Origin: Thermoanaerobaculia bacterium | Lineage (GTDB): Bacteria; Acidobacteriota; Thermoanaerobaculia; UBA5066 | Assembly: GCA_041495865.1 (NCBI GenBank) | Contig: JBGQDL010000003.1 | Location: forward strand, 1 to 56,316 | Length of the DNA: 56,316 bases | Direction of reading: 5' to 3' | In this document: in pieces, positions 1-38,331 of the stretch | How the letters are laid out: the number at the start of each line of letters is the position of its first letter | How positions within the stretch are numbered: the first letter of the stretch is position 1 | Program-made: the position numbers and the translations under genes | The notes under the pieces: model-generated | What the model saw: the letters and a program-made list of their open reading frames with translations, nothing else | What the model was told of the DNA's origin: nothing | The model's database searches: none

Positions 1-1
1 C

Positions 2-181
2 TGGCAGGTGCCTGACCGCGCGACGTCCGAGCTGATGAGGCACTTCTACGAAGGAGTCCTCAAGCAGGGCCTTCGGCCGGCAGCGGCCCTCCGGGCGGCC
101 CAGATCGCGATTCGGCGCGAGAAGCGATGGGCGTCGCCGTACTACTGGGCCGCGTTCACGCTGCAGGGGGACTGGAACTGA
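2..181 (+). CDS. CHAT-domain protein, 3' end only (truncated by window edge)
   Basis: Frame 2 reads WQVPDRATSELMRHFYEGVLKQGLRPAAALRAAQIAIRREKRWASPYYWAAFTLQGDWN*, the typical CHAT C-terminus, clearly paralogous to the end of the next gene. Confidence 0.9.
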   Translation, partial: WQVPDRATSELMRHFYEGVLKQGLRPAAALRAAQIAIRREKRWASPYYWAAFTLQGDWN

Positions 182-186
182 CGCCG

Positions 187-3100
187 ATGAATCAAACTGC
201 CTGTCCTTCGGATGGTCTTGTGCTCAATACTCACCTGGTTCCGCGTTCGCCACGGCCTCATCGTGTCGCTGCGCTCGCGCTGCTGAGCCTCCTGGGCTCG
301 CACTTCGTGCGGGCGGACATTCCGCTCCCCGAAGGCTCTCTTCTTCCTGGGGCAAAACAGTCGTTTCCCGTCGCGGTCCAGGGCGGGCAGTTTCTGCGTG
401 TGGAGCTCGAAGTCAACGGCCGCGACTTCGAATTGTCCATCCTCGGGATCGCTGGCGAGAAGCTCGCCTCGGCGCGAAACATGGTTCGCGAACCGAGACC
501 TCTGGCCGTCTCTTTGATTGGCGTAACCGCGGGCGAATACCGGGTGGAACTCAGCCTGCCCGAGAAAGGCGCCACCACGCCGGCGAGCTACCGGTGCCGC
601 GTGACCGGCCCGCGTGCCACCGCGCCCGGCGATGAAAAGCGCGTGGCGGCGGACAGCGCTTACGCCGCGGCTGATGACATCCGCGCCGACGGCTCCAAGG
701 CCTCTCGGCTGAAGGCGATCGAGATGTATCAGCAGGCGTTGGGCCTGTGGCAGGCGATCGGCGATCGGAGCGGCGAGGCCGCGGCGCACGCCTCCCTGGG
801 CTACTCGTTCTTCCAGTTGGGCAACCTCGAGCCGGCTCAGGAGCACTTCGAGCAGGCCCTCCGCGGCTGGCAATCGCTGAACGACCCGGCGCGCCAAGTC
901 GAGTGCCTGACGGTCCGCGGCATGGCTTACATCAATGCCGGCGATTTGCGGGAGGCAGAGGCTTCCATGCAGGCGGCCTTGCGGCTCGTCGGTCCACTCG
1001 GAGACCCTTACCGCGAGGCCCTCGTGTACCACGGCCTCGGCGGGGTGCGCGCCGATTCCGGCGATCTCACCGAGGCACAGGAATTGTATCGCCGGGGGGC
1101 GGCGCTCGCCGAAAAAGTTGGTAACCGGCACCGGCAAACGATGTTGCTGGGCGGCTATGCCCGGGTCCTGCGAGTTCAGGGAGACCAAGTGGAGTCTCTC
1201 GAGATCCTGAGCGGCATCTTACCCTTCTATCGCGAAGCGGGCGACCGCCGCGGGGAGATGTATTCACTCAACGGAATCGGCGTGGCGCATCAGTGGCTGG
1301 GCCACACCCAGCAGGCTCTCGAAGCCTACCGCCAGGCTTTGGAACTGAGCCGGTCTGTGGGCGACACGGTGATGGAAAACGCAGCGCTTTCGAACGTGTG
1401 CCAGATGTACGTGGAGACGGACGATCCGGAACGAGCGCTCGAGTGCTTCAACCAGTGCATCACCCAAAGCCGGGCGAATCATCAGCCCGCGGAGGAAGCC
1501 AGGAACTTGAAGGAGGCCAGCAAAGTCTACAACAGGCTGGGGTCGCCCACAAAAGCCCTGGAATACTGCACTCGTGCGTTGAGCCTCCTCCAGAACCTCG
1601 ACAATCCAATCGCGGAAGGTGATATCAGGACGACCATCGGCGACGCTTATGTCCGGCTCGGCCAACCGCGCAAAGCCCTGGAGTTCTATGGTGCGACCAT
1701 CGACATGTATCGCGCCGATGGACGGCCGTTTTGGGAGGTGGAAGCGCTGGCGTCGCAGGGCGAAACCCTCGTGTCGCTGGGCGAAACCGCCGGAGCCTCG
1801 GAAGCGCTCGGGCGGGCGCTTGCCCAGCTTCGCGGCCTGAACCCGGACAACCTGGAAGCGGATGTTCTCATCGATCTCGCTCAAATTGCCGCGTCCGAGA
1901 ACCGGGTCACAGAAGCAAAGGCCCGGATTGACGCGGCGCTGGCGGCGACCGAGTCGTTCCGCGGCGGGATCGCCGGGGCAGACCAGCGCTCTTCGTTTCT
2001 GGCGAAGCACTTTTCGGTGTACGAGGCCGCCATCGACGTATTGATGGAACTCCACCGCCGGGAGCCCACCCAGGGCTTCGCGGCGCAGGCGTTCGAGATC
2101 AGCGAGCGCGCGCGGGCACGCAGCCTTCGCGATCTCCTCGGCGAGTCCCGCGCCGGCATTCGGTCGGGCGTCGCGCCCGAGCTCCTCAAGGAGGAGGGGT
2201 CTGTGGGCGACCGGCTGGCCGCGAAGGCCCGCTATCGCCTGGAGGTCCAGGGCGGACCTCACACCGAAGCCCAGACGGCCACGCTCGATCGGGAGCTGCG
2301 CACCCTGGCCGATGCCTACGCCGGCGTCCAGGCTCGCATACGGGCGAGCAGTCCCGCTTACGCGGGTCTCACACAGCCTCGAACGCTCTCGCTGTCACGC
2401 GTTCAACAGGAGCTTCTCGACGAGGACACGATGCTGCTCGAGTATTCGCTGGGCGGTCAGCGCAGTGTGCTCTGGGCGGTGACGAAGACCTCCTTCGCCG
2501 TGTACGAACTGCCCGGCCGGAGGCAGATCGAAGAGCTGGCGCGGCGGGCGTATCAGCAGATGATCAGAAAGGTTCCACAGGAAAAGGCCGACGCTGCGCA
2601 GGCTCTGAGCCGTGTCTTGTTGGGTCCCGTCGCGCGGCAGTTGGGCAGTCGCCGACTGGTGGTGGTGGCCGATGGAATCCTGCAGTACATTCCCTTCGCG
2701 GCGCTGACGGGCCGAGGGGGCGCGCCGCTGAGCGCTGGCCACACCGTCGCCTACCTGCCCTCGGCTTCCACGTTGGCGCTTCTTCGAGAGGGGATTGAGG
2801 GACGCAAGCCTGCGCCGAAGCTCGTCGCGGTGCTGGCCGACCCCGTTTACACGCGCGACGATCCGCGCGTCCATGGCGCGACGCCCGCCGCGGCGCCGGT
2901 TCACACGTCCGAAAGCCTGGAGAGGTCGGCCAAGGACACGGGTCTCCTCGAGTTCGGCCGCCTCTATTCCACGCGCAACGAGGCCAAAGCCATCCTCGGC
3001 CTGGCGGAGCCGAGCGAGCGACTTTCGGCCCTCGACTTTCAGGCCAGCCGCGAAACCGCCACCAGCGCGTCCCTGAGCCAGTACCGCATCGTGCACTTCG

Positions 3101-3531
3101 CCACCCATGGTCTGCTCAATTCCCGGCAGCCCGCACTCTCGGGTCTGGTCCTGTCGCTGGTCACGGCGAAGGGCGCGCCCGCCAACGGCTTTCTGCAGGC
3201 GTACGAGATCTACAATCTGAAACTCGGGGCGGACCTGGTGGTTCTGAGCGCCTGCCAGACGGCGCTGGGCAAGGAGGTGCGCGGAGAAGGGCTGCTCGGC
3301 CTGACGCGCGCGTTCATGTACGCCGGCGCTCCACGCGTCGTCGCGACACTGTGGCCGGTGCCCGATGTCGCCACCGCGGAGCTGATGAAGCGCTTCTACC
3401 GCGCCATGCTCGTGGACCACGTGGCTCCGGCGGCGGCCTTGCGGCTGGCACAGGAGTCGCTGCGCCATGAAGCCCGTTGGTCGGCTCCGTATTACTGGGC
3501 CGGGTTCACGCTGCAGGGGGACTGGAACTGA
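187..3531 (+). CDS. TPR-repeat CHAT (caspase-like, clan CD) protease, probably exported
   Basis: Hydrophobic N-terminal segment (VAALALLSLLG), small beta domain, long TPR array, CHAT domain with intact HFATHG and VLSACQT motifs; start taken at ATG 187 after the upstream stop. Confidence 0.92.
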   Translation: MNQTACPSDGLVLNTHLVPRSPRPHRVAALALLSLLGSHFVRADIPLPEGSLLPGAKQSFPVAVQGGQFLRVELEVNGRDFELSILGIAGEKLASARNMVREPRPLAVSLIGVTAGEYRVELSLPEKGATTPASYRCRVTGPRATAPGDEKRVAADSAYAAADDIRADGSKASRLKAIEMYQQALGLWQAIGDRSGEAAAHASLGYSFFQLGNLEPAQEHFEQALRGWQSLNDPARQVECLTVRGMAYINAGDLREAEASMQAALRLVGPLGDPYREALVYHGLGGVRADSGDLTEAQELYRRGAALAEKVGNRHRQTMLLGGYARVLRVQGDQVESLEILSGILPFYREAGDRRGEMYSLNGIGVAHQWLGHTQQALEAYRQALELSRSVGDTVMENAALSNVCQMYVETDDPERALECFNQCITQSRANHQPAEEARNLKEASKVYNRLGSPTKALEYCTRALSLLQNLDNPIAEGDIRTTIGDAYVRLGQPRKALEFYGATIDMYRADGRPFWEVEALASQGETLVSLGETAGASEALGRALAQLRGLNPDNLEADVLIDLAQIAASENRVTEAKARIDAALAATESFRGGIAGADQRSSFLAKHFSVYEAAIDVLMELHRREPTQGFAAQAFEISERARARSLRDLLGESRAGIRSGVAPELLKEEGSVGDRLAAKARYRLEVQGGPHTEAQTATLDRELRTLADAYAGVQARIRASSPAYAGLTQPRTLSLSRVQQELLDEDTMLLEYSLGGQRSVLWAVTKTSFAVYELPGRRQIEELARRAYQQMIRKVPQEKADAAQALSRVLLGPVARQLGSRRLVVVADGILQYIPFAALTGRGGAPLSAGHTVAYLPSASTLALLREGIEGRKPAPKLVAVLADPVYTRDDPRVHGATPAAAPVHTSESLERSAKDTGLLEFGRLYSTRNEAKAILGLAEPSERLSALDFQASRETATSASLSQYRIVHFATHGLLNSRQPALSGLVLSLVTAKGAPANGFLQAYEIYNLKLGADLVVLSACQTALGKEVRGEGLLGLTRAFMYAGAPRVVATLWPVPDVATAELMKRFYRAMLVDHVAPAAALRLAQESLRHEARWSAPYYWAGFTLQGDWN

Positions 3532-3536
3532 CACCG

Positions 3537-4130
3537 ATGAGCCGCGACGACGCGTCCCCGGGGACCCCGGCGGAGCTTGTCCGGAGAATCCGCGCGGGAG
3601 ACGCCGCCGCGGAGAGCGAGCTCGTCTCGAGGTACGGACGCGGTGTGGCCATCCTCATCCATCGCGCGAGCAGCGACGCCTCGGCCGTCGACGACCTTTG
3701 CCAGCAGACGTTTCAGATCGCCCTCGAGAAAATCCGCGGGGGAGACGTTCGCGAGCCGGAGAAGCTCTCCGGGTTCATCTGCGCTCTGGCGCGGAACCTC
3801 GTCATCGACCATTTCCGGAGGGCGGCGGCGCATCGATTCCCGGGCTCCGTCGAGGGAAGCCTGGCAGCCGATCCGGCCCCCGGCCCGCTCGAGAGCCTGC
3901 TCAGGGTCGAGAAGGCGTCGATCGTGAGGCGCGTGCTCGCGGAGCTTCCGTCGGAACGCGATCGTGAGATCCTGTTTCGCTTCTACATCGCCGAAGACGA
4001 AAAGGACTCGATCTGCCGCGACCTTGGGCTGACGAGCCTCCACTTCAACCGAGTCCTCTTCCGGGCTCGCGAGCGATACCGGGAACTGTACGAAGAGACG
4101 ACGAGAAAGAACGTGAAGGAGCCGGGATAA
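3537..4130 (+). CDS. ECF-type sigma-70 factor
   Basis: ELVRRIRAGDAAAESELVSRY, DDLCQQTF, ARNLVIDHFRR (region 2); LAELPSERDREIL...FNRVLFRARERY (region 4). Confidence 0.9.
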   Translation: MSRDDASPGTPAELVRRIRAGDAAAESELVSRYGRGVAILIHRASSDASAVDDLCQQTFQIALEKIRGGDVREPEKLSGFICALARNLVIDHFRRAAAHRFPGSVEGSLAADPAPGPLESLLRVEKASIVRRVLAELPSERDREILFRFYIAEDEKDSICRDLGLTSLHFNRVLFRARERYRELYEETTRKNVKEPG

Positions 4131-4159
4131 TGGGCGCGCGAAACCCACCTTCAGGTGAG

Positions 4160-4939
4160 ATGGATCACGAGTTCGTCCAAGGGAATCAGATTCCAGACCG
4201 CTATCGGATGGGAAAGCTTTCGGTCGAGGAGAGACTCCAGTTCGAGGAGCATTTCCTCGATTGCCCGATCTGTCTCGAGCACCTCGAATCGCTCGAAGGG
4301 CTGAGGGTCGGCCTGAAAGAGCTGTCACGAGAGAGGACGGCCGCGGCCGGGCCGGGGCGTTTCCCTCGCGTCCGCCCCCGACGTGGATATCGCTTGATCG
4401 GCCTTCTCGCGGCGGCGTGTCTCGCCGTGGCGGTCCTTCTGCCCGCCCTCTTCTTCGGCGAGCTCCGCCGAACGAGGGGCGAGCTGGAAAGTGTTCGAAG
4501 ATCTTTCGACGAAGCGCAGCGAGACAAGATCGAGCTGACCCGGGTACTGGAGCGTGAACGAGCGGCGGGAGCGAGCGCCGCCGGCGCCGTCGCGCCCCTC
4601 GCGGCCTCCGTATTTACCCTGAACCTGACGAGAGGAGCCGCCACTGAAGTACCTGACGACCGGATCGTCCTTCGGGATCCCAAGGAGTGGGTCATCCTCC
4701 TTCTCGACCGGCCCGATCGGTCGAGCTTCGAGAGCTACCGGGCGAGGATCTCGACGGCCGATCGGCGCCCGATCGGAGACGCGCTCACGGCGAGCGCGGC
4801 CTCGGGCGACATGCTCGCCGTGGGCCTCCCCCCCGGGCTTCTCCCGGCGGGCGACTACGTCCTGACCCTCGAAGGACTCGGAGCCGGGTCCGTCAAGGAC
4901 CTCGCGACGTATCGCTTCCGCGCGGTCCTCCGGAAGTAG
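4160..4939 (+). CDS. zf-HC2 (ZAS) membrane anti-sigma factor
   Basis: FEEHFLDCPIC = HxxxCxxC; one TM helix (LIGLLAAACLAVAVLLPALFFG); coiled coil; C-terminal extracytoplasmic beta domain; directly follows the sigma gene. Start could be 4130 or 4160. Confidence 0.85.
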   Translation: MDHEFVQGNQIPDRYRMGKLSVEERLQFEEHFLDCPICLEHLESLEGLRVGLKELSRERTAAAGPGRFPRVRPRRGYRLIGLLAAACLAVAVLLPALFFGELRRTRGELESVRRSFDEAQRDKIELTRVLERERAAGASAAGAVAPLAASVFTLNLTRGAATEVPDDRIVLRDPKEWVILLLDRPDRSSFESYRARISTADRRPIGDALTASAASGDMLAVGLPPGLLPAGDYVLTLEGLGAGSVKDLATYRFRAVLRK

Positions 4940-5020
4940 CCGGCTGAGATAGTTCCGACCGGTCCTCCACTCTGAAGACAACTGAGTCTCAGTAAGGGAG
5001 GACCAGATGATGTCCGGACG
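4940..5020 (+). repeat. Copy 1 of duplicated promoter/palindrome/RBS/start cassette
   Basis: ccggctgagatagttccgaccggtcctccactctgaagacaactgagtctcagtaagggaggaccagatgatgtcc is nearly identical to 6405-6490. Confidence 0.92.
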
Positions 5021-6389
5021 CACCCTGACTCGGGTCGCAGTCGGTCTTGGCTTCGCACTGCTCGGGCTCGGAAGTCGCGCCGCGCAGGCCCAAGTCGTCA
5101 CCGAGTTCAGCGCCGGCATTACCCCCGGCGCGAACCCCGAGGGCATCACGGTCGGCCCCGATGGCAACCTGTGGTTCGCGGAGGGTATCGGCAACCGGAT
5201 CGCGAGGATTACCCCGCTCGGAGTGGTCACCGAGTTCAGCGTCGGCATCACCGCCGGTGCGCACCCCCGAGACATCACGGCCGGCCCCGATGGCAACCTA
5301 TGGTTCACGGAGGGTCTCGACCGGATCGGGCGCATTACTCCGCTCGGAGTCATCACCGAGTTCAGCGCCGGCATCACGGCCGGCGCGAGCCCTAAGGACA
5401 TCACGGCTGGCCCCGATGGCAATCTGTGGTTCACGGAAGATCTCCGAAAGGCGATCGGGCGCATCACGCCGCTCGGAGCCGTCACCGAATTCACAGCCGG
5501 CTTTACCGCCGGCGCGGTCCCCCCCAGGAGCATCACGGTCGGCTCCGATGGCAACCTGTGGTTCACGGAAGCCAACAGCGGACGGGTCGGGCGGATTACT
5601 CCGCTCGGAATCATCACCGAGTTCAGCGGCGGCATCACCCTCGGCGCGAGCCCCGGGGACATCACGGCCGGCCCCGATGGCAATCTGTGGTTCACGGAAA
5701 TTACAGGCGACCGGATCGGACGGATTACTCCGCTCGGAGTGGTCACCGAGTTCAGCGCCGGAATCACGAACGGTGCGACCCCCGTGGGCATCATGGCCGG
5801 CCCCGACGGCAACCTATGGTTCACGGAAAACAATGGCAACCAGATCGGGCGGATTACTCCGCTCGGAGTCGTCACCGAGTTCAGCGCCGGCATCTCTGCC
5901 GGTGCGTTCCCGTTCGAAATCGCGGCCGGCCCCGATGGCAGCCTGTGGTTCACGGAAACCATTGGCAACCGGATCGGGAGAATCACAACGGGTGTCGTCG
6001 CCGGGACAAGCAGCTTTTTCTCCCTTCCTCCGTGCAGGGTGCTGGACACGAGGAACCCGACGAGCCCGCTCGGTGGGCCGCCTCTCCAGCCGGCCGGGTC
6101 GCCGGACAGGGCCTTCGTCGTGACCTCTACGTGTGGGATCCCGGCAGATGCCGCCGCCATCTCCGTGAACATGACCGTGACCAACGTCGCAGGAGACGGC
6201 TTTCTCTCGGTCTATCGCGGAGACGGCATTCGCACCGGCACCTATTCAATCTCCTTCGGGAAGGGCCAGACGCGGGCAAACAACGCCATCCTGCAACTGG
6301 CACTCGACGGGTCGGGCTCGTTCAAGGTTCAAAACTCCGCGGCCGGGACCCTCGACTTCATCCTGGATGTGAACGGCTTTTTCAGGTGA
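5007..6389 (+). CDS. Secreted Vgb-like (streptogramin lyase fold) beta-propeller protein with C-terminal PCRxxDTR domain
   Basis: Signal peptide ending AQA-Q; seven ~42-aa repeats P..IT.GPDGNLWFTE...RIGRITP.G..TEF; C-terminal PPCRVLDTR...CGIP...ILDVNGFFR. Confidence 0.88.
   Translation: MMSGRTLTRVAVGLGFALLGLGSRAAQAQVVTEFSAGITPGANPEGITVGPDGNLWFAEGIGNRIARITPLGVVTEFSVGITAGAHPRDITAGPDGNLWFTEGLDRIGRITPLGVITEFSAGITAGASPKDITAGPDGNLWFTEDLRKAIGRITPLGAVTEFTAGFTAGAVPPRSITVGSDGNLWFTEANSGRVGRITPLGIITEFSGGITLGASPGDITAGPDGNLWFTEITGDRIGRITPLGVVTEFSAGITNGATPVGIMAGPDGNLWFTENNGNQIGRITPLGVVTEFSAGISAGAFPFEIAAGPDGSLWFTETIGNRIGRITTGVVAGTSSFFSLPPCRVLDTRNPTSPLGGPPLQPAGSPDRAFVVTSTCGIPADAAAISVNMTVTNVAGDGFLSVYRGDGIRTGTYSISFGKGQTRANNAILQLALDGSGSFKVQNSAAGTLDFILDVNGFFR
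5095..5990 (+). repeat. Seven intragenic tandem repeats of about 126 bp (propeller blades)
   Basis: Recurrent ggccccgatggcaacctgtggttcacgga and cggattactccgctcggagt. Confidence 0.9.
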
Positions 6390-6404
6390 GCTGGGGAATC
6401 ATCG

Positions 6405-6490
6405 CCGGCTGAGATAGTTCCGCCCGGTCCTCCACTCTGAAGACGAAGGAACTGAGTCTCAGTAAAGGAGGACCAAATGATGTCCGAACG
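6405..6490 (+). repeat. Copy 2 of duplicated promoter/palindrome/RBS/start cassette
   Basis: ccggctgagatagttccgcccggtcctccactctgaagacgaaggaactgagtctcagtaaaggaggaccaaatgatgtcc. Confidence 0.92.
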
Positions 6491-6824
6491 CATCTCGACG
6501 AGAGCGGCCGCCCGCGCTGCAGGTCCATGGCTGCTCGCTGCACTTCTCTTCGCTGCGCCGGCAGCAGTCGCCGCGCTCGGGGACGGAACCGATCCCGATT
6601 GCGGCGCGGCCGAGCCCTGCGCGGTGATGTCCCCGTCGCCGCATTCCAGTTCCTCGGCAGGCGCTCGAGGATCGGCGCGCGACCGCGAGTCGTCTGTCCG
6701 GGCTGGGAACCGGAGAGCAGCGCGGAAAGCGAAGGCGGCGAAAAAGGCCACTCCGTCGAGTCCGACCCTCGTCGCGACGGATGCGTCGACCACAGCAAAT
6801 CTCGGTAAAGGGAGGACCAAATGA
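6477..6824 (+). CDS. Small exported low-complexity protein (signal peptide, Cys pair, basic tail)
   Basis: Strong SD aaaggagg; signal peptide paralogous to that of the next gene; ATGA overlap with the next gene. Confidence 0.55.
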   Translation: MMSERISTRAAARAAGPWLLAALLFAAPAAVAALGDGTDPDCGAAEPCAVMSPSPHSSSSAGARGSARDRESSVRAGNRRAARKAKAAKKATPSSPTLVATDASTTANLGKGRTK

Positions 6825-8245
6825 AGACAGAACGCGTCTCGACGAGAGTGGCCGGCCACGCCGCCGGTTCCTGGCTGAACGCGACGCTCCTCTTCGCAGC
6901 GCTGACAATCGCGTGGATCGCCTCCGGCGAGAGTAGGCACGACTTCCTCGAGCCGTTCGTGAACCCGACCGGCGCTGCCCGGACCTTCTCGACCGCGGGC
7001 CGCATCGACACGGACAACCCCTTCTTCCTGGACCTGGGCACGAACGGGCGCACGTGCTTCACGTGCCATCGCCCCGACACCGGGTGGTCCATCACGCCGG
7101 GGGGCGTGCGGGAGCGCTTCGAGGCCACCGCCGGGCTCGACCCGATTTTCCGCACGAACGACGGCTCCAACTCGCCGAATGCCGACGTGGTGACCGTCGA
7201 GGCACGTCGAAGCGCCTATAGCATGCTCCTGAGCAAGGGCCTCATCCGGGTCGGCATCGGCATTCCGGCCGACGCCGAGTTCACGCTCGAGGCGGTAGAC
7301 GATCCTTACGGGTTCGCGAGCAGCCACGAGCTCTCTCTCTTCCGGCGTCCCCTCCCGTCCACGAATCTGGCTTTCCTCAGCACAGTCATGTTCGACGGCC
7401 GCGAGACGTTCCCGGGGCAGACGATCGCGTTCGACCTCGCGGACCAGGCGAATGGCGCCACGTTGGGACACGCCCAGGCGAGCGTCCCGCTCTCGACCGA
7501 GCAGCGCGAGCAGATCGTGGACTTCGAGACGGGGCTGTTCACGGCCCAGGTCTACGACGTCGCCGCCGGAGATCTCGGCAGTCAGGGGGCGAAGGGCGGA
7601 CCGAAGGCTCTCTCGAAGCAGGATTTCTTCCTCGGGATCAACGACCCGCTGGGGCTGAATCCCAAGGGAATCCCGTTCAGCCCGATCGTCTTCACCGACT
7701 TCGCAGCCTGGGCCAGGCTCAAGAGCAGCCACGGGGATGACGCCGACGAGGAGCACGAGGGACGTTCCGCGGCGCGGCTGGCCGTGGCGCGGGGCGAGGA
7801 GCTGTTCAACGGCAAGCGGATCAACATCACGGGAGTGAAGGGCCTCAACGACGACCTGGGCGTCGTGAGCATCCCGGGCACGTGCGGCACGTGTCACGAC
7901 TCGCCGAACGTCGGCAATCACTCGGTAGCGGCGCCGCTCGACATCGGCCTCGCCGACGCCTCGCGCCGGACGCCTGACATGCCCCTCTATACCCTGAAGA
8001 ACAAGGCCACGGGACAGACCGTTCGGACGACCGATCCCGGGCGAGCCCTCATCACCGGCAAGTGGAAACACATCGGCCGGTTCAAGGGACCGATCCTGCG
8101 CGGCCTCGCGGCCCGGGCGCCCTACTTCCACAACGGCTCGGCTGCCGCGCTCACCGACGCGGTCCGGTTCTACGACGAGCGCTTCGGGATCGGGCTGACG
8201 GAAGGAGAGATCTCGGACCTCGCCGCGTTCCTGCGGGTCCAGTGA
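6821..8245 (+). CDS. Di-heme cytochrome c peroxidase-like (bCcP/MauG family) protein
   Basis: Two heme motifs CFTCH and CGTCH; MFDGRE, DPGRALITG, FKGPILRGLAARAPYFHNGSA, DLAAFL. Confidence 0.88.
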   Translation: MKTERVSTRVAGHAAGSWLNATLLFAALTIAWIASGESRHDFLEPFVNPTGAARTFSTAGRIDTDNPFFLDLGTNGRTCFTCHRPDTGWSITPGGVRERFEATAGLDPIFRTNDGSNSPNADVVTVEARRSAYSMLLSKGLIRVGIGIPADAEFTLEAVDDPYGFASSHELSLFRRPLPSTNLAFLSTVMFDGRETFPGQTIAFDLADQANGATLGHAQASVPLSTEQREQIVDFETGLFTAQVYDVAAGDLGSQGAKGGPKALSKQDFFLGINDPLGLNPKGIPFSPIVFTDFAAWARLKSSHGDDADEEHEGRSAARLAVARGEELFNGKRINITGVKGLNDDLGVVSIPGTCGTCHDSPNVGNHSVAAPLDIGLADASRRTPDMPLYTLKNKATGQTVRTTDPGRALITGKWKHIGRFKGPILRGLAARAPYFHNGSAAALTDAVRFYDERFGIGLTEGEISDLAAFLRVQ

Positions 8246-8248
8246 CGT

Positions 8249-9757
8249 CTACTTCCGGATGCCGGGCCGCTGGCGAATCTGAAGGTCGATCTCCACGGAG
8301 AGCTCGTCGGGGCGGGGTTCCAGGTAGCCCGAGTGGGCTTCCGGCTCCCGGGGCCCTGCCTCGACGATGTCGATTCCACGCCGCTCCACGGCGACGGAGT
8401 CGCACCGGAATTCCGGGGTCCGGCCGCGGCGTCCCGCAAGGTAGATCGGAAAAGCGTCACACTTGAGGACGCACGGTCCGCCCCGAAACTCCAGCGGAAG
8501 ATTCCGGACGAAGACGTTCGGCCCCGCCGGCAGCCGCTCGACCTGGCCCACGGCGGAGCGAGCGAGCGCGAAAGCGTCGTTCCAATACCGCTGGAGAGAA
8601 AGCCCGCTCAGGCACGCCCCGGCGAAGAAGGCGGCGAAAAGGAGAGTCCCCGCCAGGGGAAGCGTGCCCCGATCCCGGGCTCCGCGGGCTTCCCGGAGCG
8701 CGGCAGCCGCCGAGTCGGTCCCGACGCCGAAAAGAAAAGCCATCGGCAAAGCCGCCGCATACACGAGCCGCCCGCCGACGGCCGCTTCCGGCACGGTCCA
8801 TGTCCAGAGCACGGGCGCGAGAAAGCCGGCTGAGGCGGCGCACGACGCCGCTCCCGCGCGCGCGCCCGCCGCGCGGAGCCCGAGGAGGACGCCCACGAAG
8901 GCGAGAAGTCCGGCGCCGTGCGCGAAGACAGCCGCTCCGTGCGACGCTCCGAAGTAGGGATACGAGAACATCGCCACCGCGTATCTCCGCAGATGGAGCA
9001 GCAGAGGCGCCTCCCGGAAGAGTCGGAGCGGGGCGCCGTAATGCGATGCGTTAAGGGGCATCGCCCCCATGCGAAGCGCGACGAACGCGCCCGCCGGAAT
9101 CGCCAACAGGGCCGCGCTCGCCAGGACGCGGCGAAACGGAGCCGTCGCGGGCCGGCCCCGGCGACCCGACGCGAGCGCGATCAGAAGAAGAGGCGCCGCG
9201 AGCGCCACTTCCTTCGCCAGCAGCGCCAGCAACAGGATGCCTGCCGCCGGAACGGCGAGCAGAAGAGCCCGTCGCGCCGTGATGCCGGCCCGGACCGCGG
9301 CCGCGCAGAGGAGAAGAGAGACGAGGACGCCCGTGACGCAGAGAAGATCGAACTCACAGGAAATCCAGACGTGCGTCTCGTTTGCGGGAGGAAACACCAG
9401 GAAGAACGCCGCGGCGAGCCAGCGAACGGCCTCGTTCTCGCCGAAGGCCCGGAGGACGAAAGCGAGAAGGACGGCATTGAGCAGGTTCAGAAACGCGACC
9501 ACGGCGACATAGCCCGCCGGCGTGGTCCAGCCGAACAGGGCGAACTGCCCTTTCAAGGCCGCGTAGCCCACCGGGCGGAACACGCCCGCGAGCACCGGCA
9601 CGCTGAACAGCTCCGCCAGGCGGAACGAGCGGGCGACGTCGAGGTTCGCGTAGTCATCGGAGACGAAGAACGCACCTGTCACGGCCGGCACGAAAAGGAG
9701 CGCGCACTCGACGGCGGCGATGGCGACGAAGAAGAGAACGGGAAGCCGCCGGCTCAT
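8249..9757 (-). CDS. Polytopic membrane protein, GT-C-like glycosyltransferase
   Basis: Start MSRRLPVLFF coupled (TGATG) to the upstream GT2; first-loop SDDY, FRP motif, LALLAKE helix, many TM segments. Confidence 0.7.
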   Translation of the reverse strand: MSRRLPVLFFVAIAAVECALLFVPAVTGAFFVSDDYANLDVARSFRLAELFSVPVLAGVFRPVGYAALKGQFALFGWTTPAGYVAVVAFLNLLNAVLLAFVLRAFGENEAVRWLAAAFFLVFPPANETHVWISCEFDLLCVTGVLVSLLLCAAAVRAGITARRALLLAVPAAGILLLALLAKEVALAAPLLLIALASGRRGRPATAPFRRVLASAALLAIPAGAFVALRMGAMPLNASHYGAPLRLFREAPLLLHLRRYAVAMFSYPYFGASHGAAVFAHGAGLLAFVGVLLGLRAAGARAGAASCAASAGFLAPVLWTWTVPEAAVGGRLVYAAALPMAFLFGVGTDSAAAALREARGARDRGTLPLAGTLLFAAFFAGACLSGLSLQRYWNDAFALARSAVGQVERLPAGPNVFVRNLPLEFRGGPCVLKCDAFPIYLAGRRGRTPEFRCDSVAVERRGIDIVEAGPREPEAHSGYLEPRPDELSVEIDLQIRQRPGIRK

Positions 9758-33132: not shown

Positions 33133-34992
33133 ATGGGCCCGTCTTCTCCCATCCGGCGTACGGCGAAGCGTGTGACTCTCGCGCTGACTTGCGCCCTGGC
33201 GCTCGGCCTCGTGGCGAGCGGCACGATCCCGCTGGGCGCATCGGGCGGCTTGCGGGCGGGCAACCCGGGGCGCATCGTCGACCTGCCCGACGGGCGCGGC
33301 GAAGCCGAGCTTCTCTCGTTCGACTCGAACCTCGTCCCCGCGCTGCTTTCCACCGCTCCTGAGTCGAACGTCGACGTCGCGGACTGGCCCGCCGCGCCGG
33401 GCGTGCGCCGCAGCGTGCACCTCGCGCGCCACGAGATCTACGCGCCCGGGGCCCGAATGCTGCGCGTCGACGCCGAGGGCGAGCACGACGTGCCGCGCTC
33501 GCGCCTCGTCTTTTTCTGGGGCCGGGACGAAGCCGGCGGACGCGTCATGGTTTCCGTGGACCCCGAGACCCACGAGCTCCGCGGCCTCTCGCGCAGCCCG
33601 GACGGCTTCCACGAATTCGCGCCCGACGGCCCGGACGGCCGCGGCCTGCACCGGCTGATGAAATCCGGTCCCCCCGAGGGCGCCCCCGCTCCACAGATCA
33701 CGTGCGGGCAGGAGGACGACGCCGAGACGCGTTACGCGTTCTCGGGACGCGAGCCGCTCGGGCGCGCAGCGATGAACCTCCCCTCTCTCCACACCGCGAC
33801 GGTCGCCTTCGACACGGACAACGAGCTGATGCAGCTCAAGTTCGGCGACAACGTGGCGCTCGCGACGAACTACATCGCAACCCTCGTCGCGTCGATCAAC
33901 GTGATCTACGAGCGCGACCTGAACCTCCGGCTGCTGCAGGGGCAAACGTTCTACCGAGTCTCGTCCGTCGCCGACCCGTATACCGGCGGTACCGGGAGCG
34001 CGGACGTCAACAAGCTGAACGAGTTCGGCGGCTACTGGTCCACGAACAACGGGTCCGTCACGCGTGCGCTGGCCGCGATGCTCTCCGGCAAGCAGTTAGA
34101 CCCGAACTCCGCCTCGGGCATCGCCAGGGTCGCGCCGACGCCGCTGTGCAGCACGACGAACGGCTACAGCTTCAGCCAGATCTTCAAGTCCAACTACCTG
34201 TCGGGCGACACGATGATCGTGGGCCACGAGATCGGGCACAATCTCAGCTCGCCGCACACGCACTGCTATCCCGATCCCGCGCCGGACCGCTGCTGGAACG
34301 GGGAGAGCTGCTACCTCGGGGCGACGAACTGTCCGGCGCCGCAGACCATCAACGGGATTCCGAACGTGACCGGCACGCTCATGAGCTACTGCCACCTCAC
34401 GGGCTGCAGCTCCGTCGCCGGGATGCAAGTCTTCCACCCCACGACGGTCAACAGCTACATCGGGCCGGCGCTGTCCTCGAAGGTCGGCGTCTGCGTGTTC
34501 CCGTTTGGCGGCGGGCCGACGCCGACGCCCACGCCGACGCGCACGCCAACACCTCCCGCCGGAGCCACGCCCACGCCGACTCCCACCTCGACGCCCACGC
34601 CCCCCGCCTCGGCCGCGACGAGGCTCCATCCGCTGGCGCCCTGCCGCCTGCTCGACACGCGCAATCCGGCCGGGCCCCTCGGCGGACCGCCCCTCGGCGG
34701 CGCCGCGCAGAGGACATTCGTCGTCTGGAGCACGTGCGGCGTTCCCGTGGGAGCGGTCGCGATCTCCTCGAACGTGACGGTCGTGAATCCCGCGGTGCAG
34801 GGCAACGTCATCGCCTACCCGGCGGGAGTCGGGACGCCGAACGCCTGGACGATCAGCTTCCGGGCCGGCAAGACGCGGGGGAACAACGCGCAGATCATGC
34901 TTTCTCAGGACGGCACGGGCCGCATCGTCGTCCAGAACAACTCGGCCGGCACGCTCGACCTCGTCGTGGACGTCAATGGCTACTACCAGTGA
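33133..34992 (+). CDS. Secreted M12/reprolysin-like zinc metalloprotease with Pro-Thr linker and PCRxxDTR C-terminal domain
   Basis: HEIGHNLSSPH zinc motif, Met-turn TLMSYCH, cysteine-switch-like TCG in the prodomain; start uncertain (33061-33172). Confidence 0.88.
   Translation: MGPSSPIRRTAKRVTLALTCALALGLVASGTIPLGASGGLRAGNPGRIVDLPDGRGEAELLSFDSNLVPALLSTAPESNVDVADWPAAPGVRRSVHLARHEIYAPGARMLRVDAEGEHDVPRSRLVFFWGRDEAGGRVMVSVDPETHELRGLSRSPDGFHEFAPDGPDGRGLHRLMKSGPPEGAPAPQITCGQEDDAETRYAFSGREPLGRAAMNLPSLHTATVAFDTDNELMQLKFGDNVALATNYIATLVASINVIYERDLNLRLLQGQTFYRVSSVADPYTGGTGSADVNKLNEFGGYWSTNNGSVTRALAAMLSGKQLDPNSASGIARVAPTPLCSTTNGYSFSQIFKSNYLSGDTMIVGHEIGHNLSSPHTHCYPDPAPDRCWNGESCYLGATNCPAPQTINGIPNVTGTLMSYCHLTGCSSVAGMQVFHPTTVNSYIGPALSSKVGVCVFPFGGGPTPTPTPTRTPTPPAGATPTPTPTSTPTPPASAATRLHPLAPCRLLDTRNPAGPLGGPPLGGAAQRTFVVWSTCGVPVGAVAISSNVTVVNPAVQGNVIAYPAGVGTPNAWTISFRAGKTRGNNAQIMLSQDGTGRIVVQNNSAGTLDLVVDVNGYYQ
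34516..34605 (+). repeat. Pro-Thr linker repeat
   Basis: Encodes PTPTPTPTRTPTPPAGATPTPTPTSTPTPP. Confidence 0.9.
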
Positions 34993-35002
34993 GCGCGCGC
35001 CG

Positions 35003-36388
35003 ATGACGGCCGTCCTCGCGGCGCTTTGCCTCGCCGCTCCCGCCGGGGCCCAGCCGGTCCAAGGTGGCCCGCTGCCCGGCCCTCTGCCGCTCTTTCCGGC
35101 CGACAACTGGTGGAACGCCGACGTGAGCGCCGCTCCCGTGGACGCGCAAAGCGCGACGTTCATCGCGTGGATCGGCACGGCGAAGGGCATGCATCCCGAC
35201 TTCGGGGGCGACGCGTCGACGGGCTCGACGGACATCTACGGAATGCCGTACATCGTCGTGCCGGGCACGCAGCCGCTCGAGCCGATGGCCTTCGACTACG
35301 CCACGGAGAGCGACCCGGGCGCGCCCGGACGTCCCGCGGGCTATCCGATTCCGGCCGAGGCGAAGACGCAGCCCCACTGGATCGAGGGCGGCTATCCCGG
35401 CAACTGCGATTCCTCGTATGCCGGCTCCCCATGCCGCGGCGACAAGCACATGCTCGTCGTCGACAGCGGCCACCGCCTCCTCTTCGAGACGTGGAACACG
35501 CGCTGCCTGCCCGCGGGCTCGGCGGCGTGCACGTGGCGCGCCGGCTCGGGCGCGGTCTTCCCGCTCGATGCAAACCTGCGGCGGCCCGACACGTGGACGA
35601 GCGCCGACGCCGCGGGCCTCGCGATCCTGCCGGGCCTCGTGCGCTACGACGAGGCCGCCGGGGCGGGCGCCATCCGCCATGCCTTCCGCGTCACGCTGCG
35701 CGACTCGAACGGGTACGTCTATCCGGCCTCGCACCGCGCGGGGTCGAATCCCAGCGCGCCTCCGCTCGGCACGCGCCTGCGCCTGAAGGCGGGCAGGGAC
35801 CTCTCGACGTTCCCCGCGATCGCTCAAAGAATCTTCCAGGCGATGAAGACGTACGGGCTCATCGTGGCCGACAACGGCTCGGATCTGTATGTACAAGGTA
35901 CGTACGACACGCGCTGGGACAACGGAATCCTCAACCCCGCCTTCGGCGCGCTCAGAGGGAGCGACTTCGATGTCGTGCAGCTCGGCTGGCAGCCCGCGGC
36001 GCCGCCCGCCGCGTTGGCGCTATACCCGCTCGTGCCGTGCCGAGCCGTCGACACGCGCCGCGCGCCGGGTCCGCTGGGCGGGCCCGCGATCGGCGCGAAC
36101 GCCGCGCGCACGTTCGCGCTCGCGGGGGCATGCGGCATCCCCTCCACGGCGAAAGCGGTCTCGGCGAACCTCGCGGCCGTGAACCCATCGGCCCCCGGAG
36201 ACCTCGTCGTCTTCCCGGCGGGGGTCGGCACGCCAAACGCGTCGAGCTTGAGCTTCGCGGCGGGCCGGACGCGCGCCAACAACACCCAGATCCTCCTCTC
36301 CTCGGATGGCACGAGTCGTGCAACAGTTCAGAACAACTCGAGAGGCACGCTCGACCTGCTGATCGACGTGACCGGGTATTACGAATGA
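35003..36388 (+). CDS. Secreted protein of unknown function with PCRxxDTR C-terminal domain
   Basis: Signal peptide AGA-Q; globular domain FPADNWWN...DAAGLAILPGLVRYDE...YGLIVADNG; ends LIDVTGYYE. Confidence 0.85.
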   Translation: MTAVLAALCLAAPAGAQPVQGGPLPGPLPLFPADNWWNADVSAAPVDAQSATFIAWIGTAKGMHPDFGGDASTGSTDIYGMPYIVVPGTQPLEPMAFDYATESDPGAPGRPAGYPIPAEAKTQPHWIEGGYPGNCDSSYAGSPCRGDKHMLVVDSGHRLLFETWNTRCLPAGSAACTWRAGSGAVFPLDANLRRPDTWTSADAAGLAILPGLVRYDEAAGAGAIRHAFRVTLRDSNGYVYPASHRAGSNPSAPPLGTRLRLKAGRDLSTFPAIAQRIFQAMKTYGLIVADNGSDLYVQGTYDTRWDNGILNPAFGALRGSDFDVVQLGWQPAAPPAALALYPLVPCRAVDTRRAPGPLGGPAIGANAARTFALAGACGIPSTAKAVSANLAAVNPSAPGDLVVFPAGVGTPNASSLSFAAGRTRANNTQILLSSDGTSRATVQNNSRGTLDLLIDVTGYYE

Positions 36389-38331
36389 AAATCACGGGAT
36401 TCCTCGCTGCCTCAGGCCTCGCCCTCGCCATTCTCGCGGGGTCGCCCGTGGCGCGCGCAGCGGTCCCTTGCTCGCAACAGACTCCTTGCTTCGCGCCGGG
36501 CTTCGTGAACGGGAAGATCCTTGCGGGCAGCGGGGCGGCGAGCCCGTGGAACGGGCATCCCGTCATCGCGGACCTCGGCCTCGACGGGGGCCGGAAGTCC
36601 GTCGTCTTCGTGACGTTTGCGGGGAAGCTCTGGGTCGTGAATCTCGACGGGTCGGTGCCGACGGGGTTTCCGATCACGCTCCCGGCTCAGGCGTGGGGCG
36701 GGCCCGCGGTAGCCGACCTCGACGGCGACGGCAGGCTCGACATCGTCGTGGCGTGGGGCGCTCCCCCGAACGTTTCCACAGCGCCGGGTGGCTTCGGCGC
36801 ATGGAAGAACCACGGCCCCGGCGTTGCGTTTACGCAGATGTGGACGCGCGCTTCGATGGACAAGATCGGTCCTGCGGGCGGCCCGGACGGCGTACCTGAC
36901 GGCATGGCGGGGACGCCTGCGATCGGCAACGTCTTTGGCGACGGCCACAACCACGTCGTCATCGGCGGCTTCGACGAGCACGTCTACCTCGTGGACGGAG
37001 TCACCGGATTGGACAAGCTCGGCTGGCCCGTCTGGGTCGGAGACACGATCTGGTCCTCGCCGGCGCTCGCCGATCTCGACGGAGACGGCAAGCTGGAGAT
37101 CATCATCGGGGTGGACTCGCACTTTCAAAACGGGGGTCAGCCTGTCGGCGTGATCGTGCCCAATTTGCCGAACGGCGGTTTCCTTCTCGCTCTGAACTCG
37201 AGCGCGGCGATGCTTCCGGGCTTCCCGCGCCACTTCGACCAGGTGATCCAGAGCCCGCCCGTCGTCGGCGACATCAACGGCGACGGCCGCCCCGAGATCG
37301 TCTTCGGAACCGGCACCTTCTACGCGGGCGCGGCGCACAGGGTCTACGCGGTCGAGTGCGACGGCTCGGACGCGCCGGGCTGGCCGGTCGCGATCGACGG
37401 GCAGGTGACGAATGCCCCCGCGCTCGGCGATCTCGACGGGGACGGCAAGGCGGACGTCGTCGTCACGACGGACAATTCCGGTCCGAGCCTCAAGTACCGT
37501 GTCTACGCGATCAGAGGCAACGGGACGACCATGTGGTTCACGGAGCCGAAGGAATTCAACGGCCTCAACGTGCAGCTCGGCGCCCCCGTCATCGCCGACG
37601 TCCTCGGCACCGGCAACTTCGAGGTGCTCTTCGCGGAGAACTCCGAGGTCGTCGTGCTTTCGAACACGGGGGTCGAGCTTACGGATCAGGGCGGGCGCAC
37701 GGGTAACTTTCCGTCCTTCCTGAGCGACGGCACCGTAACGGGCGTCGCCGCCGATGTGGACGGGGCCAACGCTGTGATCGTGTCGTACTCGGGAACGCCG
37801 TTTCCGGCTTTCACGAGCACGAAGCTCTACGCATGGAACCCGAAGGCCGCGCCGGCCGCGCCGCCCTGGGGGATGTTTCACCGCGACCCGGCGTCGCAGG
37901 GCCGCACGCCGAACCCGGGCATCTGCGCGCCGCGCACGCCCGTCGCGACGAGGCTGCACCCGCTGGCCCCCTGCCGCCTCGTCGACACGCGCAATCCCGG
38001 CCCGCTCGGCGTGCTCGCCGGGCCGGCGCTCGTCGCAGGCGTGCGGAGGGATTTTGCAATCGGCGGCGTCTGCGGCGTGCCCGTGACGGCGGTCGCGATC
38101 TCGGCGAACATCACGGTCACGAACGCCGGCGCACCAGGCAGCCTCACCGTGTTCCCCTCGGATGTTTCCCAGCCGAGCACCTGGGCCATCAGCTTCAGGG
38201 CCTCCAGGACCCGGGGGAACAACGCCGTCATCTACCTCTCGGGCACGACCTCGACGTTCTCTGTTTTCGACAATTCCCCAACGTCTGTCGACTTCATCCT
38301 GGACGTTAACGGGTACTTTGCGTTTCCGTGA
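36385..38331 (+). CDS. Secreted FG-GAP/VCBS beta-propeller protein with PCRxxDTR C-terminal domain
   Basis: Repeats P..ADLDGDG..EI, GWPV; ATGA overlap; ends ILDVNGYFAFP. Confidence 0.88.
   Translation: MKITGFLAASGLALAILAGSPVARAAVPCSQQTPCFAPGFVNGKILAGSGAASPWNGHPVIADLGLDGGRKSVVFVTFAGKLWVVNLDGSVPTGFPITLPAQAWGGPAVADLDGDGRLDIVVAWGAPPNVSTAPGGFGAWKNHGPGVAFTQMWTRASMDKIGPAGGPDGVPDGMAGTPAIGNVFGDGHNHVVIGGFDEHVYLVDGVTGLDKLGWPVWVGDTIWSSPALADLDGDGKLEIIIGVDSHFQNGGQPVGVIVPNLPNGGFLLALNSSAAMLPGFPRHFDQVIQSPPVVGDINGDGRPEIVFGTGTFYAGAAHRVYAVECDGSDAPGWPVAIDGQVTNAPALGDLDGDGKADVVVTTDNSGPSLKYRVYAIRGNGTTMWFTEPKEFNGLNVQLGAPVIADVLGTGNFEVLFAENSEVVVLSNTGVELTDQGGRTGNFPSFLSDGTVTGVAADVDGANAVIVSYSGTPFPAFTSTKLYAWNPKAAPAAPPWGMFHRDPASQGRTPNPGICAPRTPVATRLHPLAPCRLVDTRNPGPLGVLAGPALVAGVRRDFAIGGVCGVPVTAVAISANITVTNAGAPGSLTVFPSDVSQPSTWAISFRASRTRGNNAVIYLSGTTSTFSVFDNSPTSVDFILDVNGYFAFP

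Follow-up and report, generated by a model that had tools for sequence, protein, structure and literature searches.

Regulated intramembrane proteolysis (RIP) of anti-sigma factors is known from RseA, on which DegS and RseP act, and from RsiW, on which PrsW and RasP act. Here we analyse a locus that may use a protease of another kind for the first step. It lies at the beginning of contig C3 (JBGQDL010000003.1) in the genome of a Thermoanaerobaculia bacterium of the phylum Acidobacteriota (GenBank assembly GCA_041495865.1; 4.16 Mb in 318 contigs). The window, by which we mean the whole stretch of DNA analysed, is the first 56,316 bases of C3, and its first genes encode TPR-CHAT proteins (tetratricopeptide repeats with a caspase-fold CHAT peptidase domain), a sigma factor of the extracytoplasmic function (ECF) type and a membrane-bound ZAS anti-sigma factor. 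An earlier reading of the same DNA, made from its letters and called here the original prediction, had taken these genes for a CRISPR-independent pathway in which exported CHAT proteases cut the outer part of the anti-sigma factor, and had named the Csx29/Csx30 pair as its precedent. That precedent is correct as it was given; it is most likely, however, that the locus is a split form of a DdvA-like module and closer to DdvA than to Csx29/Csx30.

In DdvA of Myxococcus xanthus a ZAS anti-sigma domain is fused to a periplasmic TPR-CHAT (PDB 8rot and 8rw5; PMC11506125). Its authors propose a signal-induced autoproteolysis by CHAT as the site-1 step that precedes RseP, and state that this is unproven (PMC11506125). 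Fusions of the DdvA type are reported in that paper only from Myxococcota and one Comamonas. The present locus shares with DdvA-DdvS an ECF sigma factor, an anti-sigma with a cytoplasmic HxxxCxxC motif and one transmembrane helix, and a TPR-CHAT with an intact His/Cys dyad. RseP-type intramembrane proteolysis after removal of the periplasmic part belongs to the published model of DdvA and would belong to the one proposed here. In contrast to DdvA, the TPR-CHAT is encoded by a gene of its own, is predicted to be exported by a signal peptide and has an additional beta-sandwich at its N-terminus, while the anti-sigma carries a small immunoglobulin-like (Ig-like) ectodomain and up to three CHATs stand in tandem. 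The downstream genes encode Vgb-lyase-like and di-haem proteins instead of CBASS or CRISPR components, and the system belongs to the Acidobacteriota.

The Craspase of type III-E CRISPR comprises Cas7-11, the TPR-CHAT protein Csx29, Csx30 and CASP-sigma (PMC10028731). As in Craspase, a TPR-CHAT protease would control the inhibitor of a sigma factor, and Csx29 is among the top structural matches of the CHAT protein described below. Craspase is, however, cytoplasmic, bound to Cas7-11 and activated by RNA, whereas the CHAT here is predicted to be exported, and the sigma inhibitor is a membrane ZAS protein and not Csx30. No Cas or Csx family was found among the open reading frames (ORFs) scanned in positions 1-8245 (the rest of the genome was not searched for Cas7-11). 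PADLOC matched no CRISPR or defence model to the complete CHAT, the sigma or the anti-sigma, apart from a generic TPR model, which agrees with the CRISPR independence claimed originally.

The proposed logic is also that of RseA and RsiW: a site-1 cut in the ectodomain, a site-2 protease of the M50 family and release of the sigma factor. An RseP-type M50 peptidase is encoded in the genome. The difference lies in the candidate site-1 enzyme, which is a caspase-fold cysteine protease from the same operon and not of the DegS or PrsW type. Among pairs of solved structure, SigL-RslA of Mycobacterium tuberculosis is likewise of the ZAS type, and we know of no CHAT partner of SigL/RslA. These proteins (PDB 6dv9 and 3hug) are the best sequence matches of the present pair with a solved structure, though the similarity is low.

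ECF54 sigma factors have CHAT, subtilase and carboxypeptidase genes in their context and proteolytic control has been suggested for them; the group is described as actinobacterial and without an anti-sigma (PMC8999054, PMC7826278). Unlike ECF54, the present sigma has a ZAS anti-sigma and comes from the Acidobacteriota. The word CHAT is absent from the main text of the ECF re-classification paper (PMC7826278). Our literature search found no separately encoded, exported TPR-CHAT beside an ECF/ZAS pair, the supplementary tables of PMC7826278 and PMC11506125 (S7) being outside the search, and no paper that joins the CHAT domain with Acidobacteria.

Gene order and the TPR-CHAT protein

Four co-oriented genes on the forward strand make up the core of the locus: the 3' end of a CHAT gene, CHAT-B (2..181, 59 codons and the stop), a complete TPR-CHAT gene, CHAT-2 (187..3531, 1114 amino acids), the sigma gene (3537..4130, 197 amino acids) and the anti-sigma gene (4130..4939, 269 amino acids). 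Five nucleotides separate the stop codon at 179-181 from the ATG at 187, and again five separate the stop codon at 3529-3531 from the ATG at 3537, as had been noticed originally; the sigma stop and the anti-sigma start overlap by 1 nt. Both CHAT gene ends with their junctions are covered by a 114-nt direct repeat (77-190 and 3427-3540, 77% identical). The start of the window is also the end of the contig, and CHAT-B is cut there. Its fragment ends in YYWAAFTLQGDWN, followed by TGA at 179-181, and positions 2-178 encode the last 59 positions of the Pfam CHAT domain (profile 231-289; E 5.3e-18, 65.9 bits).

CHAT-2 matches PF12770 over residues 803-1112 (E 3.8e-71; 240.3 bits against a cut-off of 24), and many Pfam TPR matches fall in residues 176-590. 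The catalytic residues are predicted to be H974 in ATHG (codon at 3106..3108, forward strand) and C1023 in SAC (3253..3255, forward strand); both are invariant in the two alignments A2 and A3. When the C-terminal 340 residues of the window protein were aligned with 67 CHAT ORFs from the loci described below, the catalytic Cys was present in all 68 rows and the His in 66, the two rows without it being ORFs truncated at a contig end or by a frame break. The AlphaFold model (pLDDT 81, pTM 0.72) consists of a signal-like segment at about 1-43, a beta-sandwich at 50-144, about eleven TPRs that form a solenoid at 147-600, a helical linker and the CHAT domain at 746-1114. Foldseek ranks DdvA first among PDB entries (8rw5, E 3.7e-14; also 8rot), then human separase (9.0e-14) and Csx29 (8eey_B, 5.0e-13). 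This ranking is suggestive but not decisive, since the TM-scores are low (0.26-0.32, as expected of a flexible multi-domain model) and the first ten E-values are close to each other. When the PDB was searched by sequence, with CHAT-2 itself or with a profile of it, TPR proteins alone came up, and these searches are therefore silent on the CHAT domain. The PF12770 score, the His-Cys dyad and the separase/Csx29-like TPR-CHAT fold all fit membership in the CHAT peptidases.

The N-terminus of CHAT-2 reads RSPRPHRVAALALLSLLGSHFVRA/DIPLP, i.e. a hydrophobic stretch VAALALLSLLG followed by VRA/D. To see how general such N-termini are, we took a mean hydropathy of at least 1.9 over 12 residues within the first 150 residues as the mark, and residues 201-350 as the internal control. 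A strongly hydrophobic 12-mer of this kind was found in 50 of the 54 full-length CHAT ORFs linked to the anti-sigma, compared with 4 of 54 in the control window, and in 17 of those linked ORFs a lipobox-like Cys stands beside it. Judged from their hydrophobic N-termini, CHAT-2 and the linked CHATs are predicted to be exported, and because the signal-peptide-like N-terminus is so common among them, they are predicted to share a compartment with the ectodomain of the anti-sigma. Both the dyad (THG, SAC) and the hydrophobic N-terminus of the original prediction are thus found in the protein, and its claim of export stands as a predicted property of the family.

Sigma and anti-sigma factors

The sigma protein matches Sigma70_r2 (E 6.5e-9) and, just over the cut-off, TIGR02937 (sigma70-ECF; 43.2 bits against 42.9, residues 25-182); no region-4 model of Pfam was listed at E <=0.01. 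Its best PDB match by sequence is SigL (6dv9_F, E 2.3e-5). By its length and by these two family matches the protein is assigned to the ECF type.

The anti-sigma has the ZAS motif H41-x3-C45-x2-C48, and all three residues are present in 79 of 79 aligned homologues. A single hydrophobic helix, LIGLLAAACLAVAVLLPAL, occupies residues 89-107. Taken alone, the window protein stays under the Pfam cut-off for zf-HC2 (17.9 bits, cut-off 22.2), and PF13490 is annotated in 17 of the 67 listed homologue clusters (a precomputed column). A profile of 23 homologues, however, matches the ZAS anti-sigma RslA (3hug_B, E 3.5e-5). In the structural model (pLDDT 78) the ZAS helices span residues 13-70, and one long helix, 87-148, holds the transmembrane and juxtamembrane parts; then come a low-confidence linker at 150-156 (linker region 149-158), a strand at 159-163 and an Ig-like beta-sandwich ectodomain at 159-267. 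The ZAS domain must be cytoplasmic to hold the sigma, as in the established topology of anti-sigma factors, and the C-terminal domain would therefore lie outside, in the same compartment as CHAT. The HxxxCxxC motif, the single transmembrane helix and the outer motif V161-FTLNLTRG-169 (4610..4636, forward strand) are all present as originally described.

Foldseek searches with the ectodomain gave only generic Ig-like folds, and an ESM Atlas search gave only Acidobacteriota clusters without names. A relationship between the ectodomain and the N-terminal beta-sandwich of CHAT was considered and dropped (profile-profile probability 12%, not significant).

Conservation of the linkage in Acidobacteriota

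The anti-sigma has homologues in 67 clusters of a large protein collection, 23 of which were aligned as a profile. This profile retrieved 104 encoding stretches in GTDB species genomes, and the best 80 were kept as loci (L numbers); the record titles of all 80 are Acidobacteriota. All stop-to-stop ORFs of these loci were scanned with a CHAT profile, made from three CHAT domains of the window genome, and with the window sigma. A same-strand CHAT stands beside the anti-sigma in 64 of the 80 loci and the sigma is adjacent to it in 72. The linked loci have two gene orders: CHAT-sigma-anti-sigma in 30 (CHAT ending no more than 1.5 kb upstream of the anti-sigma) and sigma-anti-sigma-CHAT in 34 (CHAT starting no more than 4 kb downstream). 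Neither order is seen in 16 loci, 10 of which are flanked by less than 2 kb on one side or both. In L028 CHAT and sigma stay together and an insert of 1.2 kb parts them from the anti-sigma; in L026 a CHAT match, a weak one, lies 5.5 kb downstream; and in four loci (L037-L040) the flanks reach 10 kb in either direction and contain no CHAT.

The window genome contains 8 CHAT matches in its 4.16 Mb, from which about 0.01 CHAT is expected per neighbourhood of 5-6 kb, or roughly 1 in 80 loci. The observed number is far from this, so the linkage cannot be put down to chance: it is real and survives a change of gene order. That the adjacency is accidental or an artefact of annotation is, with all domains confirmed besides, very improbable. 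Relatives are not independent of each other, and the fraction of 64 in 80 overstates the number of independent events; the two gene orders and the several classes involved (by record title, linked loci come from Thermoanaerobaculia, Terriglobia, Blastocatellia and Vicinamibacterales) correspond to at least a handful. The arrangement seen by the original prediction in one genome is in this way a conserved one.

Linkage could also arise if the CHATs were co-transcribed cargo, i.e. periplasmic or lipoprotein proteases that have substrates of their own, for example in envelope processing or defence, and never touch the anti-sigma. The four loci with full flanks and no CHAT suit this explanation, and the same is true of the varying number of tandem CHAT copies, which is 1, 2 or probably 3. 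On the other side, the linkage persists through rearrangement of the gene order and across classes, and the shared compartment and the precedent of the DdvA fusion point to a working relationship. We consider it rather unlikely that the CHATs are cargo.

Two further observations concern the composition of these loci. In the more distant loci L060-L092, which have the sigma-anti-sigma-CHAT order, an extra conserved gene of about 240-330 amino acids lies between anti-sigma and CHAT (for example L066:10672-11445 and L080:10723-11547; motifs ..YHAHT.ALAG.. and ..VEGLN.L..VTADRVV..). Its product lacks an obvious signal peptide, and a Pfam scan of two copies gave no match. Three Bryobacterales assemblies contain two paralogous sigma/anti-sigma pairs each; the pairs lie on separate contigs, and only one of the two has a CHAT gene upstream (L034/L037, L035/L038 and L041/L036, the CHAT-linked contig given first). 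In the pairs without CHAT that were scanned (L038, L040), the upstream neighbour is a divergent gene for a 2OG-Fe(II) oxygenase and the downstream one encodes an NHL propeller.

Proposed mechanism and its alternatives

How would the three components work together? We suggest, with a confidence that stops a little short of even, a trans-envelope module in which one or more exported TPR-CHATs act on the Ig-like ectodomain of the anti-sigma, as a split form of the DdvA architecture. The TPRs of CHAT, its N-terminal beta-sandwich or both would bind a ligand, CHAT would become active and trim the ectodomain, either at the flexible linker (149-158) or after Arg168, and the remaining stub would become a substrate of the RseP-type site-2 protease. 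The freed sigma would then transcribe from GAGATAG-N14-CCACT elements directly 3' of the anti-sigma gene, which precede genes of predicted secreted proteins: a Vgb-lyase-like propeller, a small ORF and a di-haem enzyme. A role of CHAT as a trans-acting site-1 protease is plausible, given the published fused analogue and the outcome of co-folding described below. A more specific version, in which ligand-bound CHATs cut TR/G after Arg168 and thereby start RIP, diverged CHAT paralogues serve as alternative sensors, and the sigma has a private promoter and a small regulon of secreted enzymes, is doubtful as a whole.

The case for Arg168 comes from conservation and from the model. In an alignment of 79 anti-sigma sequences (the window and 78 loci, two loci being dropped as their ORFs were cut or broken) the Arg is kept in 72; the other seven have His (4), Lys (1), Thr (1, L052) or Ala (1, L070). 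In L052 a TRG occurs two positions away, and the C-terminal part of L070 seems unrelated. R168 belongs to the loop L164-N-L-T-R168-G, which follows the strand 159-163, and pLDDT falls below 50 at residues 169-172. A site of recognition or cleavage would be expected to show just this, a near-invariant Arg in an exposed and flexible loop, which makes R168 a candidate; separases, too, cut after Arg (PMC11506125). The poorly conserved linker 149-158 is an alternative site, and the cleavage at TRG put forward in the original prediction stays a guess: its conservation and its predicted flexibility speak for it, its presence in sigma/anti-sigma pairs without a linked CHAT (see below) against.

CHAT-2 residues 253-1114 (alignment of 40 rows), i.e. 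the protein minus its N-terminal beta-sandwich and first TPRs, were co-folded with residues 140-269 of the anti-sigma (44 rows). The pair scored 0.39, the best of three controls 0.00, and at least 76% of the contacts agree between runs, with a partner pLDDT of at least 71; the verdict of the procedure was weak support. The mark used is passed by 58 of 80 solved complexes and 2 of 110 mismatched pairs, and at scores of 0.60 or lower by only 7 of the 80 complexes and by both passing mismatches. Accordingly, co-folding brings a modest rise in the odds that CHAT binds the anti-sigma and nothing beyond it. The co-folding suggested originally thus leans towards contact without giving an interface, and the weakness of the result also suits the explanation by cargo.

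Several points weigh against the proposed module and have to be set beside its support. Co-folding gave weak support and reported no interface. In sequence the sigma and anti-sigma are closer to SigL/RslA than to DdvS/DdvA, hence the likeness to DdvA is one of architecture and not of demonstrated descent. In M. xanthus the DdvA variants H862A and C907A behaved like wild type, and infection by phage Mx4 proceeded without autoproteolysis (PMC11506125). A search for longer homologues of the anti-sigma found no fused anti-sigma-CHAT form, which is weak evidence. The Arg motif (as YTLSPTRG) is kept in L036-L040; L037-L040 are free of CHAT for 10 kb in both directions, and for L036 the downstream flank covers just 313 nt. 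The motif therefore does not track a linked CHAT, and R168 may be structural or may serve another protease. Finally, contigs C124, C164 and C34 of the same genome carry TPR-CHATs and have no detected relative of this sigma or anti-sigma, so TPR-CHATs have roles outside the module; this also favours, as far as it goes, proteases with substrates of their own.

RseB, the co-sensor and protector of RseA, shows another way in which an outer protein can control an anti-sigma. By analogy CHAT could bind the ectodomain and not cut it, acting as a co-sensor or protector, or the ectodomain could serve CHAT as a tethered inhibitor or pseudosubstrate, in which case the sigma would report that the protease is engaged with its real substrate. 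The linkage, the shared compartment and the weak co-folding result serve this explanation equally well, and the persistence of the Arg motif where no CHAT is linked suits a function different from that of a CHAT cleavage site. The Foldseek list of the ectodomain even includes an Ig-like inhibitor of cysteine proteases, EhICP2 (rank 14, E 2.6e-4), but this match is non-specific, being one of 43 weak Ig-fold matches with E <=0.001. The strict His/Cys dyad of the linked CHATs points to a need for catalysis, possibly on a different substrate. We regard binding without cleavage as unlikely.

Taken together, the interpretation in the original prediction is partly supported: export (as predicted), linkage, the dyad and the presence of several CHATs agree with it, and cleavage of the anti-sigma stays with the things that we infer.

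Promoter-like element and downstream genes

Immediately after the anti-sigma gene we noticed a bipartite promoter-like element, GAGATAG-N14-CCACTC. Copy 1 (4946..4972, forward strand) begins 7 nt past the anti-sigma stop codon; from its last base to the ATG at 5007 the distance is 34 nt. Copy 2 (6411..6437, forward strand) precedes the small ORF with a signal-like N-terminus and the di-haem gene. The strict motif has two copies in the 4.16 Mb genome, both of them here, against a mean of 1.0 in mononucleotide shuffles. Its position is conserved: a relaxed pattern occurs 21-56 nt past the anti-sigma stop in all nine of the closest loci (L013-L021) and at +81 in L023, and elsewhere in the 80 loci, on both strands, there are only four other matches. 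The boxes are conserved, and the 14-nt spacer changes its sequence and not its length. The element is kept though the downstream gene differs, being the di-haem gene in L013, L014 and L017 and the Vgb-like gene in L018-L021. No copy was found in front of the CHAT genes of the loci L013-L021 and L023.

The simplest reading is that the element would be an ECF-type promoter used by the adjacent sigma. If this is true, and with none before the CHAT genes, the CHATs would be an input of the system and not its output, which also speaks against their being mere cargo of the operon, and the regulon would be local and made of secreted enzymes. Other searches for regulatory signals were negative: Rfam had no match in 1-9000 at E <=1, no sigma-70-like promoter was found in 3400-8400, and the regions upstream of the first CHAT gene (13 relatives and C183) shared no ECF-like motif; by eye only -10-like boxes, TAGACT or TATCAT, were seen in them. 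Between the element and the ribosome-binding site lies a perfect palindrome of 13 nt, ACTGAGTCTCAGT (4981..4993, forward strand), with a second copy at about 6451-6463, before the ORF at 6477. The palindrome is also present in L013-L015 and L017, and in L016 as a variant one base shorter; it may be the operator of a second regulator.

The first gene behind the element encodes a Vgb-lyase-like beta-propeller of 460 amino acids (5007..6389, forward strand; Pfam Vgb_lyase E 1.9e-94), predicted to be secreted. Homologues lie 3' of the anti-sigma in L018-L021, which makes it a candidate target of the sigma. The small ORF (6477..6824, forward strand, 115 amino acids) has a signal-like N-terminus and no Pfam match, and ORFs at the matching position in L013, L014 and L017 open with a similar N-terminus. 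The di-haem protein of 474 amino acids (6821..8245, forward strand) is MauG/MbnH/RoxA-like by weak family matches, all under their cut-offs; orthologues with 80-90% identity lie 3' of the anti-sigma in L013, L014 and L017, and it is the other candidate target.

Within the Vgb-like gene, window positions 5095-5956 contain five tandem repeats of 217 nt at a spacing of about 129 nt, 69-85% identical to the reference copy, which correspond to the blades of the propeller. The C-terminal part of about 120 amino acids (from ..PCRVLDTRN.. to ..LDVNGFF and the stop) recurs at the end of at least two ORFs about 30 kb downstream; the repeated segments lie at 6327-6389, 34930-34992 and 36326-36388, and also at 34598-34667, 35994-36063 and 37928-37997. 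FG-GAP-like repeats (36703-37641) adjoin these recurring parts. The recurring part looks like a C-terminal sorting or anchoring domain shared by secreted proteins.

CHAT array and accessory island

The last 135 bases of contig C183, read in reverse complement, are an exact match to the beginning of the window. This contig contains two further co-oriented tandem TPR-CHAT genes, of 960 and at least 1017 amino acids; the second is truncated at the contig end, with a Pfam match that extends to profile position 272 of 289. It is this second gene that continues into positions 2-181 as CHAT-B. Because of the exact overlap and the two genes beyond it, the array probably consists of three CHAT genes, not two, and the original proposal of two paralogous sensors for one sigma holds in its main part, several paralogous CHATs before one sigma, and probably not in their number.

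The tandem paralogues are only about 38-45% identical (CHAT-B and CHAT-2: 38%). CHAT-B is 80-88% identical to the sigma-adjacent CHAT of L013, L014 and L017, and CHAT-2 is 83% identical to that of L015, which means that two old CHAT lineages can each stand before the same sigma. The window genome has both lineages and a third in front of one sigma. Such an arrangement fits several sensors that feed one sigma and fits simple gene amplification equally well. Elsewhere in the genome, the CHAT matches on C124, C164 and C34 exceed the Pfam cut-off and one on C95 stays below it. The CHAT gene on C124 (8628-12071, minus strand) has the same beta-sandwich-TPR-CHAT layout with 37% identity, and a sigma-54 activator with an FHA domain is encoded about 2 kb from it.

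In C183 these genes are flanked by glyA. In the congener G246 no more than about 36 nt separate the 3' end of glyA from sequence that corresponds to the window from position 9776 onward. This junction supports the order glyA, C183, C3 and an insertion of about 16 kb. The whole module (locus L009) is accordingly placed, by comparison of the two sequences, on an accessory island of about 16 kb between the 3' end of glyA and position 9776. The island contains a Phd/PIN toxin-antitoxin pair, three TPR-CHATs, the sigma, the anti-sigma, the Vgb-like gene, the small ORF, the di-haem gene and an unassigned gene at 8252-9757, and part of its right end (8273-9757) matches a separate small contig of another congener. 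With the anti-sigma as a single-protein query, none of the three genomes of the same genus gave a homologue, and of 300 other genomes sampled from the phylum only 5 did (E <=1e-8). In C183 a short repeat copy of the glyA 3' end follows the Phd/PIN pair.

Conclusions

The idea of CHAT as a site-1 protease is, for this locus, a split variant of the published DdvA hypothesis and not a wholly new concept. New are the bipartite promoter-like motif 3' of the anti-sigma gene and the position of the module on an accessory island of about 16 kb.

CHAT proteins have already been tied to the control of sigma inhibitors twice: by experiment for Csx29/Csx30 in the cytoplasm, and for DdvA as a periplasmic fusion in which cleavage is hypothetical. 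A third, split architecture in several classes of Acidobacteriota suggests that control of an anti-sigma by a caspase-like protease is a recurrent design that extends beyond defence islands. If the proposed mechanism is true, CHAT would be the first caspase-fold site-1 protease that works in trans on an anti-sigma. Unlike in the DdvA fusion, protease and substrate are separate proteins here, and the cleavage step can therefore be examined directly, so that the locus would be an experimentally simpler place than DdvA for the hypothesis of CHAT-driven RIP. The candidate private promoter and the short list of possible targets, the Vgb-lyase-like propeller and the di-haem enzyme, hint at a secreted enzymatic output of the system.

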